Shown here one piece after another: positions 10,918-51,331 of a DNA stretch of 64,000 nucleotides. The stretch lies in NCBI GenBank assembly GCA_048941015.1, contig JBHLNZ010000005.1, forward strand, positions 1 through 64,000, written 5' to 3'. This DNA comes from Promethearchaeota archaeon. Lineage in GTDB: Archaea > Asgardarchaeota > Lokiarchaeia > Sigyniarchaeales > SOKP01. Both the position numbers and the translations under genes were made by a program. Positions within the stretch are counted from its first letter, which is position 1, and every line of letters begins with the position of its first letter. The notes below the pieces were generated by a model that ran no database searches, had not been told where the DNA came from, and saw only the letters and a list, made by a program, of their open reading frames with translations.

Positions 10918-13900
10918 TTAAAATATATTAAGTAATTCTTTCTCTTGATTAAATAAAGGTAAAATTTCTAGTAAAGATCTTATTTTAGATAAATAAATTT
11001 CGTTTTTATGTAATTTTATATCAATAATGAAATTGATACACCTAATATAATAGGTATCTTCAACCAATCTTTTATTTAATCCTAAAGAATTTAAGACTTG
11101 ATTTATATTTGCATTTATTTTTTCAATAGAGACTCCTGCATTCAAAAGAGCTAATCCATGGAGTAAAAGCATAAGAGGACTCATTTGAAAATCTTTTCTT
11201 CGGGACATGGATTCAGCTAATTCAAAGTATTTTTGTCCTGCTTCGCTAAATCTTTGATTTTCAAGTAGATCTAAGACATCTCTATACAAAATTCTCTTCA
11301 ATCGGTTGCGTTTATCAAAAAGATCGTCTTTTTCTCTTCTCACATCTACCATCTGGTTCTGTAAATAAGCATATACTTGTTCCATTTGAATCGAACGGAT
11401 GTTTTCTTCTCCTTTTTCTTTTCTTGATTTTATATCTTTTATATCTAATTCTCCCTTTTCTTCACCAAGAAAAGATTTTAATAAGTCTATCTCTGGATCT
11501 TCTAGAGGTAGTTTTTCAATAAGACTTTTTATTGCAAATTCAATCAAATTATTCATATTGTTTTCCAAGAAAAAGAAAAATTCTTTCATTATTTGAATTT
11601 CTGGTAAATCTTCGAAATCCTTTTTATATTTTTCAAACTTACTTAACTTATCATAGAAAACTGATTTTGCAATTGAAATATCTTCCAATTTTATTTTGAT
11701 TAAACTAGCTATAATTAGACTTATCGCTGCTTGCTTGAAAAATCTTTTATCTAGGAGAGGATTAATCGTATCTAAATAATCAGTTGCAGCAATTAATAAT
11801 TTTTTATTTGATAAATCTTCTAATGCTAATCGCCAATATTGATTTCTCATTAATTTTCTCTTAGCGATATCTTGCTTCTCTTTCCGAATCTGTGCTGTTA
11901 GTTCTTTGAGTCGTTCTTTGATTTTTTCAACGTCGATAAGATCTTGTTGTTTAGTTTTATCTTTATAAACTTTACCGATAAAATCATATAAAATTTTAAC
12001 TTCTTCTTCAAAAAGTGGTAAATTCTCATAAAATAATAGAGATTCTTTAAATTTAATATCATCTTGAAATTCTTTTACATCAAGAATATATTCTATTAAA
12101 GTAACTGGAAATGTTTCTGAAAAAGATTGACCTAAACCAGATAACTCATTTTTTAATCTATTCAATAAATTGTTTACTTCATCAATTTTATTTTGAGTAA
12201 ATAAAATCAATGATATAATAGCTAATGATACTCCAGCTAAATTGTAATTTTGAATTTTAATTAGGCGATCAATAGTCTCTCGATATTTTATTAAAGCCTG
12301 CTCAAATTCATTTTTTGATAACAAATCTAATGGTACTGCAAAATAAGCCCTCTTTAAAGCTTTTCTTTGCCTCATCTCATTTTCCTTGTCATGAAGAGCA
12401 TCTCTAGCTCTTTTTTGAATAATTGAAAGTTTTTCTTTAAGTATTTCACTTTTATAAGACTCTTTCACTTTTTTTGTTTCAGCTTCCATCTTAGTTGCTT
12501 CTGTTTTAGTAATAATTTTATGTAATTCTGTTTGGATCCATTTATCCTCTATTTTATCATTGATTGAGTGAGCAGCAGATAAATCATTTAAGGAAACATA
12601 TATTTCTGTTATTTTTTTATAAATTTTATCTACGTTTAGTTTTTCTTTTTCAAGATAAGCTGATGAGATATCAATTGCTTTTTTAATAAGATTCATTGCC
12701 TTTTCTATTCCTTGCTCATCTTCTCTGAAATTGACTACTCTAAGAGCTTCTTCTTTTATCACTTCTATGTAAAGTTCACTAAGCTCCTTAGATTGTTCAT
12801 ATAACATTTGATCTCTATAAATTCTAGTTGCATTAGCAAAGGATTTTTGATTTTTATTAAAATTTTCTTCTTCTCTTAAACTCTTTAGCATTCTAATAAA
12901 AATAGGGAATTTTTTTTCCAGATAGATTTTTTTAGTTCCTTCCGTTAGATCAAAATAAAGTGAGAAAAAATCATCAAATTTTTTACCAACCAATAAAATA
13001 TCAAGAGCTTTTGTAAGTAGTTGGTTTTGATCTTCATATTTTCCGATGTTTTTTAAGAAATCGGCTTGGATTTTTATCCTATCTGCTGCTTTCAAATAAT
13101 CTTTATTTTCAATTAATATATTTGCCTCATTAATTATCTTAGTATTGATTTCAGTAATAATGGTTTGCTCTTTCTCCATAAAATCGTGTATTATACTAAC
13201 ACCTTTCTCGATATTTTCAGAGATTTCTTTCTTTCTTAATTCTTTACCTTTTTCTTCTGTAATTAGGCTTTCTTTCGTTAGTTTCTTTTTCAGAGATAAT
13301 GAGTTTAATTTATTAATTAAATTGGAAGCCATTCCAAAATTGTAAATCTCCAAAAAGAGTTTAATCAATTTTGAGAGCAATTTATCTAAATCTCTTTTTT
13401 TAACTCCGTAGGATTCCCAGAGATTTTCAATCTCATCATAAGTTTGTCTAGCAGCATACTTTTCTCCCTCATTAATCTGAATTTCTAATATTTTTATTAA
13501 AACATCAACTAGTTTAGGTGTAAATTTATCGATAATTTCAAATAATCCTTCCTTTTGATAAACTGCTATCGATTGATATAACTGATCTTTAGCACTATTA
13601 TAGTTTTCTATATTGATAAGATAGTCTATAGCGGCTAAAATTTTATCGGAAATTTCTTGTAAAATTATAAGAACTGCTTCGTGAGGTAAGCTATATACAA
13701 CTTGAAATGCTTTTTGAATATTGCAAGCAGATACCCAAGCATTAATTGAATTCCTAAATGCTTGATTTCTTATATTATGATCTCTTAATTCTATTGCTGC
13801 AAATTGAGCAGCAGCTAAATATTGCTCAGCTGCTTGATCATATAATTTTTTATTAAATAAGCGATTTCCTTCAGAAATCATATGCGCTACATGTAACTTT

Positions 13901-43925: not shown

Positions 43926-44570
43926 TTATAAATTATTTTTTTTAAATCTGTAAATATTTACATCAATCATTTTCGCTTTCATCTTATGAAAATAAAAGGT
44001 TTTTTCAAGTCTTAATTTATAAGGAAATACATAGTCTATATGCCAATTATATTTCTTAATATAATTTTGAAGGAAATTATTTACTTTTTCATTAGATAAA
44101 TGGATCGAATATATTATTGATGAAAAAGAGAGTGCTTTTTCTAAAAAGATTCTATCCGCTTTTTTCTTTTGTACCCCAAATGGTGGATTCATAATGGTTG
44201 TAATTTTTCTTTCTTTAGGTAAAAATAACTTATTAAGTTCAAAATGTCCGATCTCAGCACAAATTGGAAATATAACATTATTCAGTTTAAGATTATCAAT
44301 ATTATATTTTAGTATTTTTAAAGCACTAAAATCAATATCGATACTTAAAACATATATTGCTTTGAAAAAAGCACTAGCAATAGATAATCTTCCCGTACCG
44401 GCACCTAAATCAACAATTATTTGATTTTGGATATCATTAAATTCAAATCCAGCAAAATAAATAATATCAACTGCACTCACAGCATCAATGCAATACTGCT
44501 CAAGATTTACTTTAGGGTCTGAGAATGCTTGAGTGTTTTGAATTATAGAAATTAAATCTTTTTTTTTTAT
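43926..44570 (-). CDS. METTL5-like N6-adenine RNA methyltransferase; true start probably ATA at 44570 (track calls 44480)
   Basis: DLGAGTG and NPPFG motifs. The family N-terminus KKKDL...F.DPKVNLEQY is in frame upstream of the track's GTG. Confidence 0.85.
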   Translation of the reverse strand: MKKKDLISIIQNTQAFSDPKVNLEQYCIDAVSAVDIIYFAGFEFNDIQNQIIVDLGAGTGRLSIASAFFKAIYVLSIDIDFSALKILKYNIDNLKLNNVIFPICAEIGHFELNKLFLPKERKITTIMNPPFGVQKKKADRIFLEKALSFSSIIYSIHLSNEKVNNFLQNYIKKYNWHIDYVFPYKLRLEKTFYFHKMKAKMIDVNIYRFKKNNL

Positions 44571-44673
44571 GTTTATCGCCTAAAAAGTCTGCTTATTTAA
44601 ATTTTTATTTTGTATTATGATTAAATTTATTTAATTTATTTAATAATAATTAAGTAAGGAAATTAAAAGATTT

Positions 44674-47209: not shown

Positions 47210-47686
47210 TTAAAATGTGGCAATCTCGTACTCTAAAATCTCTTTCATTCTTTCACGCAATTCAGTCCTAATTGCAGACATTCCATAAGTTTTCAAGCCA
47301 CCAAGTCTTTTTTGTATCTCTTTAGCACTTAAAGCTCCAGGTAAGTCTTGTTTATTAGCAATAGCAATTATTTTAGTTCCTAAACTACGTTCAAATCTAT
47401 CGTAAATTTGCTTTGTCTTTTTTATATTTTCTTCTGTTGAATCACAAACTAAAACAGCTAAACCGGCACCTCTCAAGAAATCTTTCCACATGAACTTAAA
47501 CCTTTTCTGACCTCCGAAATCCCATATTGAACATTTCTTCCCATTTAATATTGAATCTTCTACCTCTAAACCAACAGTCGGAATCCGCTCTTTTCTAACT
47601 TCTCTTCCTTGTAATAAAGTCAATAATGATGATTTTCCTACCCCTGTATCTCCTACAAGACAAATTTTTTGTTTTGTTGTATAAAC
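47210..47686 (-). CDS. Arf-like small GTPase; P-loop lies upstream of the track start, initiation codon unclear
   Basis: In-frame KICLVGDTGVGKSS upstream of 47623; PTVG, WDFGGQ, ANKQDLPGAL and SA. Confidence 0.8.
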   Translation of the reverse strand, partial: VYTTKQKICLVGDTGVGKSSLLTLLQGREVRKERIPTVGLEVEDSILNGKKCSIWDFGGQKRFKFMWKDFLRGAGLAVLVCDSTEENIKKTKQIYDRFERSLGTKIIAIANKQDLPGALSAKEIQKRLGGLKTYGMSAIRTELRERMKEILEYEIATF

Positions 47687-47946
47687 TTTATATCAACCCT
47701 TTCTAATACTAAATCACGTTAATTAGAAAAGGCAAGATATTGTTCAAAAATTAAAATAATATTGACATATCATGCGAATTTTATCATATAAAGTCTATTT
47801 ATCAATTCTGCCATTACTATCATAAAAAGAGCCTTTTAACTTTAGAAATATCCTCCTATTTATCTATTTTATATACGCATATTATGAGAATTTAAATAAA
47901 AAAGAGTTTAAGATAAGATTGAAAATAATAGTTATTTGTGAATTAA

Positions 47947-48399: not shown

Positions 48400-49698
48400 T
48401 TACCCTGTTACGAGATCTTTGACAATACCTACAGCAACGGTTCTGCCCATATCCCTAACTGCGAACCGGCCCATTTCTGGGATGTCTTCATACTTCTCGA
48501 TACAGATCTTCTTGATAGGTTGTAATTTAATAATCGCTGATTCATTTCTCTTGATAAATTTAGGTGAATCTTCGATAACAGCGCCAGTTTTTTGGTCTAA
48601 TTTCTTGTTTAGTTCAACAAATTTAGCCGCAATTTGTGCTGTGTGAGCATGTACAACAGGAGTATATCCTTGAGCAATAGCAGTAGGATGCCAAATGACA
48701 ATAATCTGACCAGTCCAATTACCGCTTGGGTTAACTACAGTTGGTATGCTACTTGGATGCCCTAGGCAATCTCCACGACCGACATCCTTCATTTCAAGAC
48801 CTCTTATACTAAATCCAACGTTATCTCCAGGTTCTGCTTGAGGAATTTCTTCATGGTGCATTTCGATACTACGTATTTCACCTTGGAATCCAGTAGGCAT
48901 AATTACAATTTTATCTCCTTTTTTAAGAATGCCTGTTTCAACCCTACCAACTGGAACAACACCAGTACCTTTAATTCTGTAAGCATCTTGAATTGGTAAA
49001 CGTAAAGGCTTGTCAACTGGTTTTGGAGGAATTTCGAATTTATCTATAGCATCGATTAGAGTTGGTCCCTTATACCATGGCATTTTATCACTAGCTTCAG
49101 TTAAATTATCTCCTGTCATACCACTTGTAGGAACAAAATCAACATTCTTGACATTGTAACCTATTTGCTTAAGAAGATTCGATACAGATTCTTTACATTC
49201 ATTAAATCTATCTTCACTATAATCATAATTATCTGCTTTATTTATAGCGACACATAATTGTTTTACACCTAGAGTTTGTGCTAAATATGCGTGTTCTCGG
49301 GTTTGTCCATTTGCTGCCACTCCAACTTCCATTTCTCCTTTTTTACCGGATACGACTAGTATTGCAGCATCTGCTTGTGAAGCACCTGTAATCATATTCT
49401 TTACGAAGTCAGCATGACCAGGAGCATCAATTATCGTGAAATATTTTGATTTAGTCTCAAATTTTCTGAAAGCAAGATCAATGGTAATTCCACGCTGTCG
49501 TTCCTCCTTTAGTCGGTCAAAAACATAAGCATAAGACCAGGAAGGACGATCATATTCTTTAGCAATTTTTTCTAGCTCTCTTGCTTCTCTATCCGAAATA
49601 GCACCAGTTTTGATGAGTAAGGCACCCATCATAGTAGATTTTCCATGATCTATGTGCCCGATTATTACTAAATTCAAATGAGGTTTATCTGTTGGCAT
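48400..49698 (-). CDS. tuf: Elongation factor 1-alpha
   Basis: GHIDHGKST, RGITID, DAPGH, NMITGASQAD and GRFAVRDMG. Confidence 0.98.
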   Translation of the reverse strand: MPTDKPHLNLVIIGHIDHGKSTMMGALLIKTGAISDREARELEKIAKEYDRPSWSYAYVFDRLKEERQRGITIDLAFRKFETKSKYFTIIDAPGHADFVKNMITGASQADAAILVVSGKKGEMEVGVAANGQTREHAYLAQTLGVKQLCVAINKADNYDYSEDRFNECKESVSNLLKQIGYNVKNVDFVPTSGMTGDNLTEASDKMPWYKGPTLIDAIDKFEIPPKPVDKPLRLPIQDAYRIKGTGVVPVGRVETGILKKGDKIVIMPTGFQGEIRSIEMHHEEIPQAEPGDNVGFSIRGLEMKDVGRGDCLGHPSSIPTVVNPSGNWTGQIIVIWHPTAIAQGYTPVVHAHTAQIAAKFVELNKKLDQKTGAVIEDSPKFIKRNESAIIKLQPIKKICIEKYEDIPEMGRFAVRDMGRTVAVGIVKDLVTG

Positions 49699-49864: not shown

Positions 49865-50347
49865 TCATGGATACTTTTTTCTCTTAGAATTCAATAAATA
49901 TTCACCTTGAAGATCATTATAAAGTTCTTCCCTATTTTCCTTTAACAAAAGAAATATCTCATTTAGTTCATTTTGAAAATTGATTCTTTTGCCAAAGTCA
50001 TCTACAAATTCTTTAACAACTTTTTCTTCTAAGAATTTTTTAAAAATGAGATCAATGTCAGAAATGTCAAATCTTGTTTCTTTAAAGTAATCTAGTAAAT
50101 GATGTAAGTAATAAGCTTTAATATAAAGAAATTTATTACTATATTTCTTTTCTAAATCTTTCTGATAAAAGAATTTTAATTGTCGTAGTATTATAGTATC
50201 GTCTTCATTATATAGATATTTTTCATCTTCAGTATTATTAAAAGCCCATTCTGTTCCAAAATCGATATTTCTATCTACATAATTCGCGATTAATCGATCA
50301 ATGCCAACTTTGTCAGACCATTTATTATGAATATCCCAATTTGGTAT
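49865..50347 (-). CDS. Unannotated 160-aa protein (putative His/Asp metal-binding, Zn-hydrolase-like), probable ATA start
   Basis: Stop-free 161-codon frame missed by the track: (M)PNWDIHNKWSDKVGIDRLIANYVDRNID...YYLHHLLDYF...; contains no ATG. Confidence 0.75.
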   Translation of the reverse strand: MPNWDIHNKWSDKVGIDRLIANYVDRNIDFGTEWAFNNTEDEKYLYNEDDTIILRQLKFFYQKDLEKKYSNKFLYIKAYYLHHLLDYFKETRFDISDIDLIFKKFLEEKVVKEFVDDFGKRINFQNELNEIFLLLKENREELYNDLQGEYLLNSKRKKYP

Positions 50348-50506
50348 CTTTTGTTCACTTAATGGAATGAATTAATTATATAATTCTTAAAAATGATAAA
50401 TTAAAATAAAGGTTAAGGTAAAAAGATAATAAAAATAAAAAAACATCTAACCTTTAATAATATAAAATATACTTAAAAAAGCAATCAAAATAATAAATTA
50501 AAAATC

Positions 50507-51331
50507 ATGGTAAAAAGTAGAAGTCCCTTTCCAAAAGAAGGAGAATTTATTATTGGTCGGGTTACGGTAGTTCAGCAACAATATGTATATGTAGAGTTAC
50601 TTGATTATAAGGGATTACCTTCAGAGTCTTTTGCAAAAGGAATGATTCATATTAGTGAAATTTCAAGCCGTTGGATAAAAAATATTCGAAATTTTGTAAG
50701 GGTAGGCCAAAGAATTGTCTGTAGAGTGTTAAGAGTTGACCCTGAGAAAGGACATATAGATTTATCTTTAAGGCGAGTCAATTCAGCACAGAAAGAAAAT
50801 AGAATGAAAGAATGGAAATATGCTCAAAAATATGAAAACTTGCTTCAATTTCTTACCGAAATGGATGGTGTAAAGATGAACTTAGATGAAACTTATGAAT
50901 TAATAGGCTGGCCTGTTTTGGATAATTTTGATTCCTATCAAGAAACAATTGAAGCCCTCAAGGAAAATGGAGAAGAACTACTTAATACTCTTGATGGGAT
51001 TTCTGAAGAAACGAAAAAAGCATTTCTAAAAATCGTTGATGAAAATGTAGAAATTTCTACAGTGAATATTATAGGAAAGATTAAATTGATAAATACTGAG
51101 GGAGATGGAATTGATAAGATTAAAGAAACTTTAACTGAGATTATAAACACGATAAAAAAGCCAAAAGCAACTAGAAAATTGAATTTATCTTACCTCGGAG
51201 CTCCTTTTTATAGGTTGGAGATCATTTCTAAAGATTATTTGGATGCAGAAAACATATTATCTGAAGCGATGGAAATATTAGAACAGAAATCTAAACAGTA
51301 TGGTGGTACTTATGAATTTATTAGGGATTAA
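50507..51331 (+). CDS. eif2a: Translation initiation factor 2 alpha subunit
   Basis: S1 domain IHISEIS..WIKNIR, KGHIDLSLRRV and GAPFYR. Confidence 0.96.
   Translation: MVKSRSPFPKEGEFIIGRVTVVQQQYVYVELLDYKGLPSESFAKGMIHISEISSRWIKNIRNFVRVGQRIVCRVLRVDPEKGHIDLSLRRVNSAQKENRMKEWKYAQKYENLLQFLTEMDGVKMNLDETYELIGWPVLDNFDSYQETIEALKENGEELLNTLDGISEETKKAFLKIVDENVEISTVNIIGKIKLINTEGDGIDKIKETLTEIINTIKKPKATRKLNLSYLGAPFYRLEIISKDYLDAENILSEAMEILEQKSKQYGGTYEFIRD

Follow-up and report, generated by a model that had tools for sequence, protein, structure and literature searches.

A hidden gene with a predicted AUA start beside EF-1alpha, and signs of relaxed start-codon choice in a lineage of Asgard archaea

The initiators of NCBI translation table 11 include ATT, ATC, ATA and CTG. 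In bacteria, infC (which encodes IF3) and Escherichia coli pcnB start at AUU or AUC, the AUU of infC being the target of IF3 autoregulation, and such starts account for 0.004-0.024% of those annotated (PMC5499595). The Asgard genome described here resembles infC in that AUH starts stand behind a Shine-Dalgarno (SD) sequence, and in that the gene of a proofreading factor, here aIF1, has a non-canonical start in 28 of 28 genomes of the genus, which suggests, by analogy, the same feedback logic. However, aIF1/eIF1 and IF3 are not homologous, and the bacterial cases are a few regulatory genes, whereas at least 1.8% of the long genes are concerned here, among them housekeeping genes and an RNA polymerase subunit.

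Near-cognate initiation in eukaryotes, with a stringency set by the levels of eIF1 and eIF5 (PMC3326321, PMC4705826), offers another parallel, as aIF1 is a homologue of eIF1/SUI1, the usable codons are CUG, AUU, AUA and AUC, and factor expression is tied to stringency. By contrast, the Asgard case is proposed to be SD-guided, with neither scanning nor eIF5, and near-cognate codons in eukaryotes mostly open uORFs or N-terminal extensions and are not the sole starts of core genes. Among archaea, aIF1 of Sulfolobus and Pyrococcus was shown to discriminate against non-AUG complexes and to destabilise them (PMC6237735). Within the Asgard group, a single "rare ATT start codon" was assigned to the tubulin AtubA in 2026 (PMC13394414), by the route of inference also followed here, namely a truncated N-terminus and, upstream of it, an ATT with a plausibly spaced ribosome-binding site; that case concerns one gene and was called rare, whereas the starts described below are systematic, genus-wide and include that of aIF1. 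Apart from this single ATT, no literature report of systematic near-cognate starts in Asgard archaea was found. What the present comparison supports as new is a systematic and lineage-wide use of near-cognate initiation which would extend to the gene of a fidelity factor.

A hidden gene between two translation-factor genes

The window, that is the whole stretch of 64,000 nucleotides analysed, belongs to a metagenome-assembled genome (MAG) of 3.59 Mb in 144 contigs (29.4% GC, 95% complete, 5% contamination), and the genomes compared with it were all MAGs. The features of the locus are as follows.

48400-49698, minus strand: EF-1alpha gene with an ATG start, on the same strand as the hidden gene and 164 nt 3' of it
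49865-50347, minus strand: coding sequence of the hidden gene, 160 amino acids and a TGA stop, with ATA as predicted start; homologues open with MPNWxIH there, and dN/dS is 0.10
49946-49948, minus strand: TTG, first canonical codon in the frame (codon 142 of 168)
50345-50347, minus strand: predicted ATA initiation codon; the homologous position holds ATG in 13 related genomes and ATA in 22
50355-50359, minus strand: SD-like AGTGA, ending 7 nt 5' of the ATA; its GTGA pairs with the 16S 3' end ...GGAUCACCUCCU
50372-50374, minus strand: in-frame TAA, 8 codons 5' of the ATA, with no intervening ATG, GTG or TTG
50376-50383, minus strand: TTATATAA, possible TATA box 29-36 nt 5' of the ATA, read from the sequence only
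50507-51331, plus strand: gene of the aIF2 alpha subunit with an ATG start, divergent neighbour of the hidden gene

An initial annotation of this DNA had claimed that the apparent gap 5' of EF-1alpha holds an open frame unlikely to exist by chance, and this claim was borne out. The minus-strand frame 49865-50371 extends over 168 codons from stop to stop and closes with the TGA at 49867-49865. Its translation contains no methionine, neither ATG nor GTG occurs anywhere in the frame, and the first TTG lies near the 3' end, as had been pointed out, which is too far 3' for producing the conserved protein. The described opening (ATA CCA AAT TGG GAT ATT CAT, from 50347), the SD-like GTGA 7 nt before it and the HHLLD motif were all found again. 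A six-frame search recovered the gene in 34 of 36 genomes of the same genus and in three of four genomes of one other family, while its codon-usage score (0.23) equals the mean of the coding sequence of the genome. In view of these results, of 104 homologous proteins and of a dN/dS of about 0.1, the frame is a real gene and not a chance ORF. In the genus it invariably sits between two translation-factor genes, as the order aIF2alpha, hidden gene, EF-1alpha (with the first divergent and the last on the same strand) was seen at every same-genus locus with sufficient flank; it was not seen within the 500-nt flanks of either of the two loci from outside the family.

The 16S 3' end of the source genome, read from the DNA, is ...GGATCACCTCCT, and the 5-mers most enriched 5' of ATG starts are GAGGT, GGAGG, AGTGA, AGGTG and GGTGA, with a 5.6-fold enrichment for AGTGA. 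The AGTGA of the hidden gene provides a 4-nt anti-SD match at an aligned spacing typical for ATG genes. Among relatives, GTGAT(C), GGGAG or GAGGT was found 6-9 nt 5' of the start at ATA and ATG loci alike. If TTATATAA serves as a TATA box, the leader of the transcript would be very short.

At the start position, the codon is ATA in 22 of the 36 related loci, ATG in 13 and GTT in one, the last of which has a TTG two codons upstream. ATT and ATC, both of which would be expected of an ordinary internal isoleucine codon at 29% GC, occur in none of the 36, and such a codon is therefore disfavoured. Between the upstream stop and the ATA, no in-frame ATG, GTG or TTG was found at any of the 22 ATA loci, and in six loci the stop is merely 2-4 codons away. 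Purifying selection on the N-terminal 35 codons is equal in the two groups, at a dN/dS of 0.10 for carriers of ATA and 0.11 for those of ATG, rough values with dS near saturation and dN far below dS. About nine changes of the ATA/ATG label are required on a maximum-likelihood tree, at least four of which are forced by well-supported branches alone, and the sequences from outside the family have ATG at this position. Recurrence, equal selection and repeated switches together indicate that ATA functions as a stable equivalent of ATG which has been gained and lost repeatedly. At the start position of this gene, the two codons are interchangeable.

A small protein family of Asgard archaea

The 168-residue query retrieved 104 homologous proteins (E 8e-63 to 3e-18), all devoid of Pfam domains; the few that are named come from Asgard MAGs whose labels conflict (Heimdall-, Hod-, Prometh-, Hermod- and Thorarchaeota). 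When 1.8 billion representative proteins were searched with a profile, just 45 members were found and no connection to any known family, which indicates that the family is small and lineage-restricted. The hidden gene thus represents a previously unrecognised, Asgard-restricted family of mostly helical proteins.

The alignment of these homologues, called at lengths of 94-199 amino acids, bears directly on the start. Homologues with an MP.W..H start had been called for by the initial annotation and do exist, as full-length members open with MPNWxIHxKW precisely at the ATA of the hidden gene. Many others are called from an internal methionine or valine (MDRNIDFG, MAGID, VDKNLDYG); in a few, a spurious ATG further upstream was taken as the start, with isoleucine at the MPNW position. 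Near-cognate starts indeed cause standard gene finders to miss or truncate such genes, as had been foreseen, and the public calls in this family are either truncated (a 135-residue "MDRNIDFG..." and a 146-residue "MAGID...") or absent.

Residues H82, H83, L85, D86, E90 and T91 are invariant in the 105 sequences and form the motif HHxxD...ET, here HHLLD, while W4 and H7 are conserved among the aligned N-termini. A confident AlphaFold2 model built from the 105-sequence alignment (pLDDT 85, pTM 0.83) contains eight helices and one short hairpin. The kinship with Zn-dependent helical hydrolases that had been suggested found no backing beyond a weak structural similarity. No family was assigned when the protein and 25 family members were scanned against Pfam and NCBIfam, and no HD-family model appeared among the hits even with loose E-value cut-offs; a profile search of the PDB returned noise only (E of 0.12 or more), and a Foldseek search of the model against the PDB returned nothing. 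In a wide structure search with VIA-align, the best scores (Z 4.7-5.0) were to HD-GYP and PgpH HD/phosphodiesterase domains, and values of this size are within noise for helical proteins. The hidden protein shares with HD and HD-GYP phosphohydrolases a mostly helical nature and conserved histidine and aspartate residues (H7, H82, H83, D86), but its HHLLD...ET departs from the canonical H...HD...D. A small metal-binding protein, either an HD-like hydrolase or a translation-linked accessory protein, may be offered as a best guess, and a doubtful one. Another lead, DUF6915 (PF21866), which came from a protein atlas with a score of 0.96, was rejected after hmmscan gave no match to it in 25 family members; a six-frame search for DUF6915 in 41 genomes found none, the control genomes being equally silent.

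Near-cognate starts across the genome

Two other genes of the window, in the minus-strand frames 43926-44579 (METTL5) and 47210-47692 (GTPase), had been grouped with the hidden gene in the initial annotation.

43926-44570, minus strand: METTL5-like methyltransferase, likely start ATA at 44570-44568 (codon 4 after a TAG)
47210-47686, minus strand: small GTPase, probable start GTT at 47686-47684, or else ATT at 47665-47663

Both are indeed without a usable canonical start, but the GTPase does not fit the proposed ATA, its likely start being GTT or ATT. In the METTL5-like gene, the first canonical codon is a GTG at codon 34, and most of the congeners examined have no canonical start nearby either; the candidate that they share, the fourth codon after the stop, is ATT, ATC or ATA in congeners and ATG in one. 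In the GTPase gene, the first canonical codon (TTG, codon 24) is located 3' of the P-loop. At the position where most congeners have their TTG start, the source genome and three others have GTT or GTC, and three have ATT. The start is thus non-canonical, and is probably the GTT, or alternatively the ATT seven codons downstream. As a start codon, GTT has two mismatches to AUG.

Such genes were found throughout the genome. The genome contains 3109 stop-to-stop ORFs that are 120 codons long or longer. A stretch of 30 or more codons precedes the first canonical start in 211 of them; many of the 211 are shadow frames. At least 25 coding-like codons precede any ATG, GTG or TTG in 39 of 2222 long genes (1.8%), versus one of 468 genes in the control (Fisher p = 0.0097), which consisted of 800 kb taken from a complete genome (31% GC) that belongs to the same order but to another family. 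By eye, the 39 include ThiF/MoeB, Rpo7, SucC, HisA, MptA, ADH synthase, a GPN GTPase, small GTPases and acetoacetate-CoA ligase. The 5' ends of such genes typically present a strong SD followed, 4-9 nt on, by ATT, ATA, ATC or CTG, and the upstream stop often falls between the SD and the near-cognate codon; examples are ThiF (aaggaggagtaattaa ATT), SucC (aaggaggagtaa AAG CTG) and HisA (aagtga AAT ACA ATC). ThiF and SucC lie directly behind the stop of the preceding gene, in an operon-like position.

Protein family models anchor several of these starts. In ten of ten genes, which have 32-113 codons without a canonical codon, residue 1 of full-length NCBIfam or Pfam models falls within 0-3 residues of an ATT, ATC, ATA or CTG, and in Rpo7, ThiF, SucC and HisA residue 1-2 of the NCBIfam equivalog model corresponds to residue 1-3 of the ORF. 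At the aligned spacing, nine of these ten genes show an SD match over 4 nt or more. For all anchored near-cognate starts, such a match is present in 11 of 13, versus 44% of high-confidence ATG starts, a comparison that is biased, as the anchors were partly picked by their SD. The METTL5-like gene has no good SD (a run of 3). ATT is the commonest of the anchored starts, followed by ATA, ATC and CTG. The idea of routine AUA initiation consequently has to be amended: start choice is relaxed genome-wide, but this relaxation is not specific to AUA.

Automated SD statistics gave a modest signal in the same direction. Aligned spacing, with its peak 15 nt from SD index 0, replaced loose-window tests, which are confounded by codons between the SD and the canonical start and by codons inside the SD itself (GGT). 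A strict SD precedes 12.8% of first ATG codons, 11.8% of TTG, 8.3% of GTG and 1.54% of other codons. ATT, ATA, ATC and CTG codons have a strict SD in 70 of 2702 cases where about 42 are expected, an excess of about 28; the 70 comprise 35 ATT, 23 ATA, 8 ATC and 4 CTG, and taken alone ATT (p = 0.002) and CTG (p = 0.009) give lower values than ATA (p = 0.056). Extrapolated with the SD rate of ATG genes (12.8%), which is assumed to apply, this excess would correspond to up to about 200 near-cognate-started genes (about 9%). Automated picking of the start with the best SD, too blunt a rule, gave 13.1 ATH or CTG picks versus 5.8 expected, about two-fold. A few percent of the genes in these Asgard genomes would then be mis-called in the same way as the hidden gene, and such mis-calls distort N-termini, structure predictions and the presence/absence calls used in studies of eukaryogenesis.

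Two further frames outside the window were recorded in passing. At C24:8532-9089 (minus strand), a frame of 185 codons without a canonical start encodes a Gly/Ala/Pro-rich low-complexity sequence (…PPPGFTATGAAGDAGDVGPGALGG…), a composition that is odd for 29% GC, although its codon score is high. At C3:37742-38296 (plus strand), a small-GTPase ORF opens inside the P-loop (NVGKTS...) right after a TAA, so that strand beta-1 and the start of GxxxxGK lie 5' of an in-frame stop. The gene could be frameshifted or interrupted, or it could be a pseudogene.

Two single-copy genes show the trait across genomes. In the genus, the start of Rpo7 is ATT in 19 genomes, ATC in three and ATG in six, always 6-7 nt after GGTG, and in other families it is ATG in 12, TTG in six and ATA in one. 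The frame of aIF1 (SUI1), at C101:18498-18839 (minus strand, outside the window), opens directly after a TGA, and its first in-frame canonical codon in the source genome is codon 75, a GTG within the SUI1 domain. No canonical codon precedes the CxxC zinc knuckle in any of 28 congeners, all of which have an invariant ATT behind aaaggttgtga. In other families, aIF1 mostly has ATG, TTG or GTG, and lacks a canonical start in several. Outside the genus, Rpo7 has ATA in genome G046, and aIF1 is without a canonical start in G042, G046, G056, G059 and G060, which indicates that the trait is patchy across the class and not unique to one genus.

The initiator tRNA gene, found by a pattern search, has a canonical anticodon arm (GGGCTCATAACCC) with a CAU anticodon and three G:C pairs. 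Of the two components that the initial annotation had singled out for inspection, aIF1 therefore proved unusual and the initiator tRNA gene ordinary: the oddity of translation is the non-canonical start of aIF1. In this genome, rated 95% complete, aragorn detected only 19 tRNAs, and a search with the Rfam tRNA model only 23; aragorn found neither a Met nor an Ile tRNA, in accordance with the intron-rich nature of the tRNA genes, which explains why they were missed.

Initiation mechanism and rival explanations

Taken together, the comparisons make it very probable that the hidden gene yields a real, expressed protein of about 160 residues, started at AUA, as one case of a lineage-wide relaxation of start stringency. 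From a mechanistic point of view, the 30S subunit would most likely be placed by SD pairing (AGUGA, 7 nt 5' of the AUA), and the ordinary initiator Met-tRNA (CAU) would pair with AUA despite the third-position mismatch, as it may with any AUH or with CUG at the cost of one mismatch. The first residue of the hidden protein would then be methionine; we infer this, as well as SD dependence and aIF1 autoregulation, from the sequence comparisons. Such tolerance may be due to an aIF1 that is less stringent or held at a low level, and at least 1.8% of the long genes, including Rpo7, SucC, HisA, ThiF/MoeB, MptA and aIF1 itself, would start from SD-led AUU, AUA, AUC or CUG. The lack of a canonical start in aIF1 and its invariant AUU point to what is probably an infC-like feedback loop with a permissive steady state. 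The wider proposal, that the start check is constitutively relaxed in this Asgard lineage, with several percent of genes having AUU, AUA, AUC or perhaps GUU as their sole start or CUG in that role, and that the level of relaxation is set by an AUU-initiated aIF1, is put forward tentatively, as plausible but falling somewhat short of probable. Sole near-cognate starts in housekeeping genes, combined with that of aIF1, would mean that initiation fidelity is set in an unusual way in the archaeal lineage closest to eukaryotes. If true, the aIF1 loop would correspond, in archaea, to the stringency feedback exerted by eukaryotic eIF1, and might be its forerunner.

Simpler explanations of the ATA were also considered. 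It could have arisen by a one-off mutation, be an artefact of sequencing or assembly, or belong to a pseudogene in decay, the gene being untranslated here, as ATG becomes ATA by one G-to-A change and the source genome is a MAG with 5% contamination. However, 22 genomes that were assembled independently have this ATA, with the frame intact in all, dN/dS in ATA carriers is 0.10 and matches that in ATG carriers, and the essential single-copy genes Rpo7 and aIF1 share the pattern. As far as orthologues go, the refutation that the initial annotation had envisaged on this ground failed, ATA being found in 22 of 36 loci, and recurrence across genomes combined with purifying selection refutes error or pseudogene in practice; very little credence is left to it. 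A reassignment of AUA to methionine, as in some mitochondrial codes, would account for the alternation of ATA solely with ATG at the start of the hidden gene, but it is contradicted by EF-1alpha, where the columns in which one genome has ATA show ATA, ATT, ATC or GTN in the others (isoleucine 207, valine 22, methionine 6) and ATG columns stay ATG. Internal ATA is isoleucine. Reassignment would moreover leave unexplained the ATT, ATC and CTG starts, which are as common as ATA or commoner, and we regard it as highly improbable. If translation began further upstream in a different frame or exon, and reached this frame by a programmed frameshift, across an intron or as part of a fusion with an upstream ORF, the ATA would be an internal isoleucine codon; Asgard genomes do have unusual features such as intron-rich tRNAs, and the GTPase ORF at C3:37742 opens inside its P-loop. 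Against this, the neighbour aIF2alpha is divergent, ATG-bearing homologues begin precisely at the ATA position, the in-frame stop lies at a variable distance of 2-26 codons with an unconserved upstream peptide, and no ATT or ATC is found among the 22 loci, though these would be expected of internal isoleucine, so that the chance of an upstream start is practically negligible.

A different route to initiation at the same non-canonical codons, through leaderless or short-leader mRNAs or through a modified or extra initiator tRNA reading AUH, is unlikely, yet deserves more attention than the preceding explanations. The TATA-like TTATATAA 29-36 nt 5' of the ATA, with similar AT-rich boxes in relatives, could give a leader so short as to leave out the SD of the hidden gene, and the SD of the METTL5-like gene is poor. 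TATA-like strings are, however, ubiquitous in DNA of 29% GC, whereas GTGAT(C), GGGAG or GAGGT is kept at a fixed spacing at ATA and ATG loci, several of the genes concerned (ThiF, SucC) follow an upstream stop directly, as in operons, and the SD matches of the anchored starts (11 of 13, versus 44% of ATG genes, under the biased selection mentioned above) also argue for SD-led initiation. As regards the tRNA, an extra initiator could have been missed among the 19-23 tRNA genes detected, but the initiator gene that was found has the canonical GGGCTCATAACCC arm, modifications being invisible in DNA. SD-led initiation by the ordinary initiator tRNA is therefore retained as the preferred reading.

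Inserts were seen in two of the tRNA genes concerned, both outside the window. In the initiator tRNA gene on C10 (plus strand, near 11650), an insert follows the 5' half of the T-stem, and a tRNA gene with a CAT anticodon at C35:13352-13484 (plus strand), 133 nt long, has two inserts.
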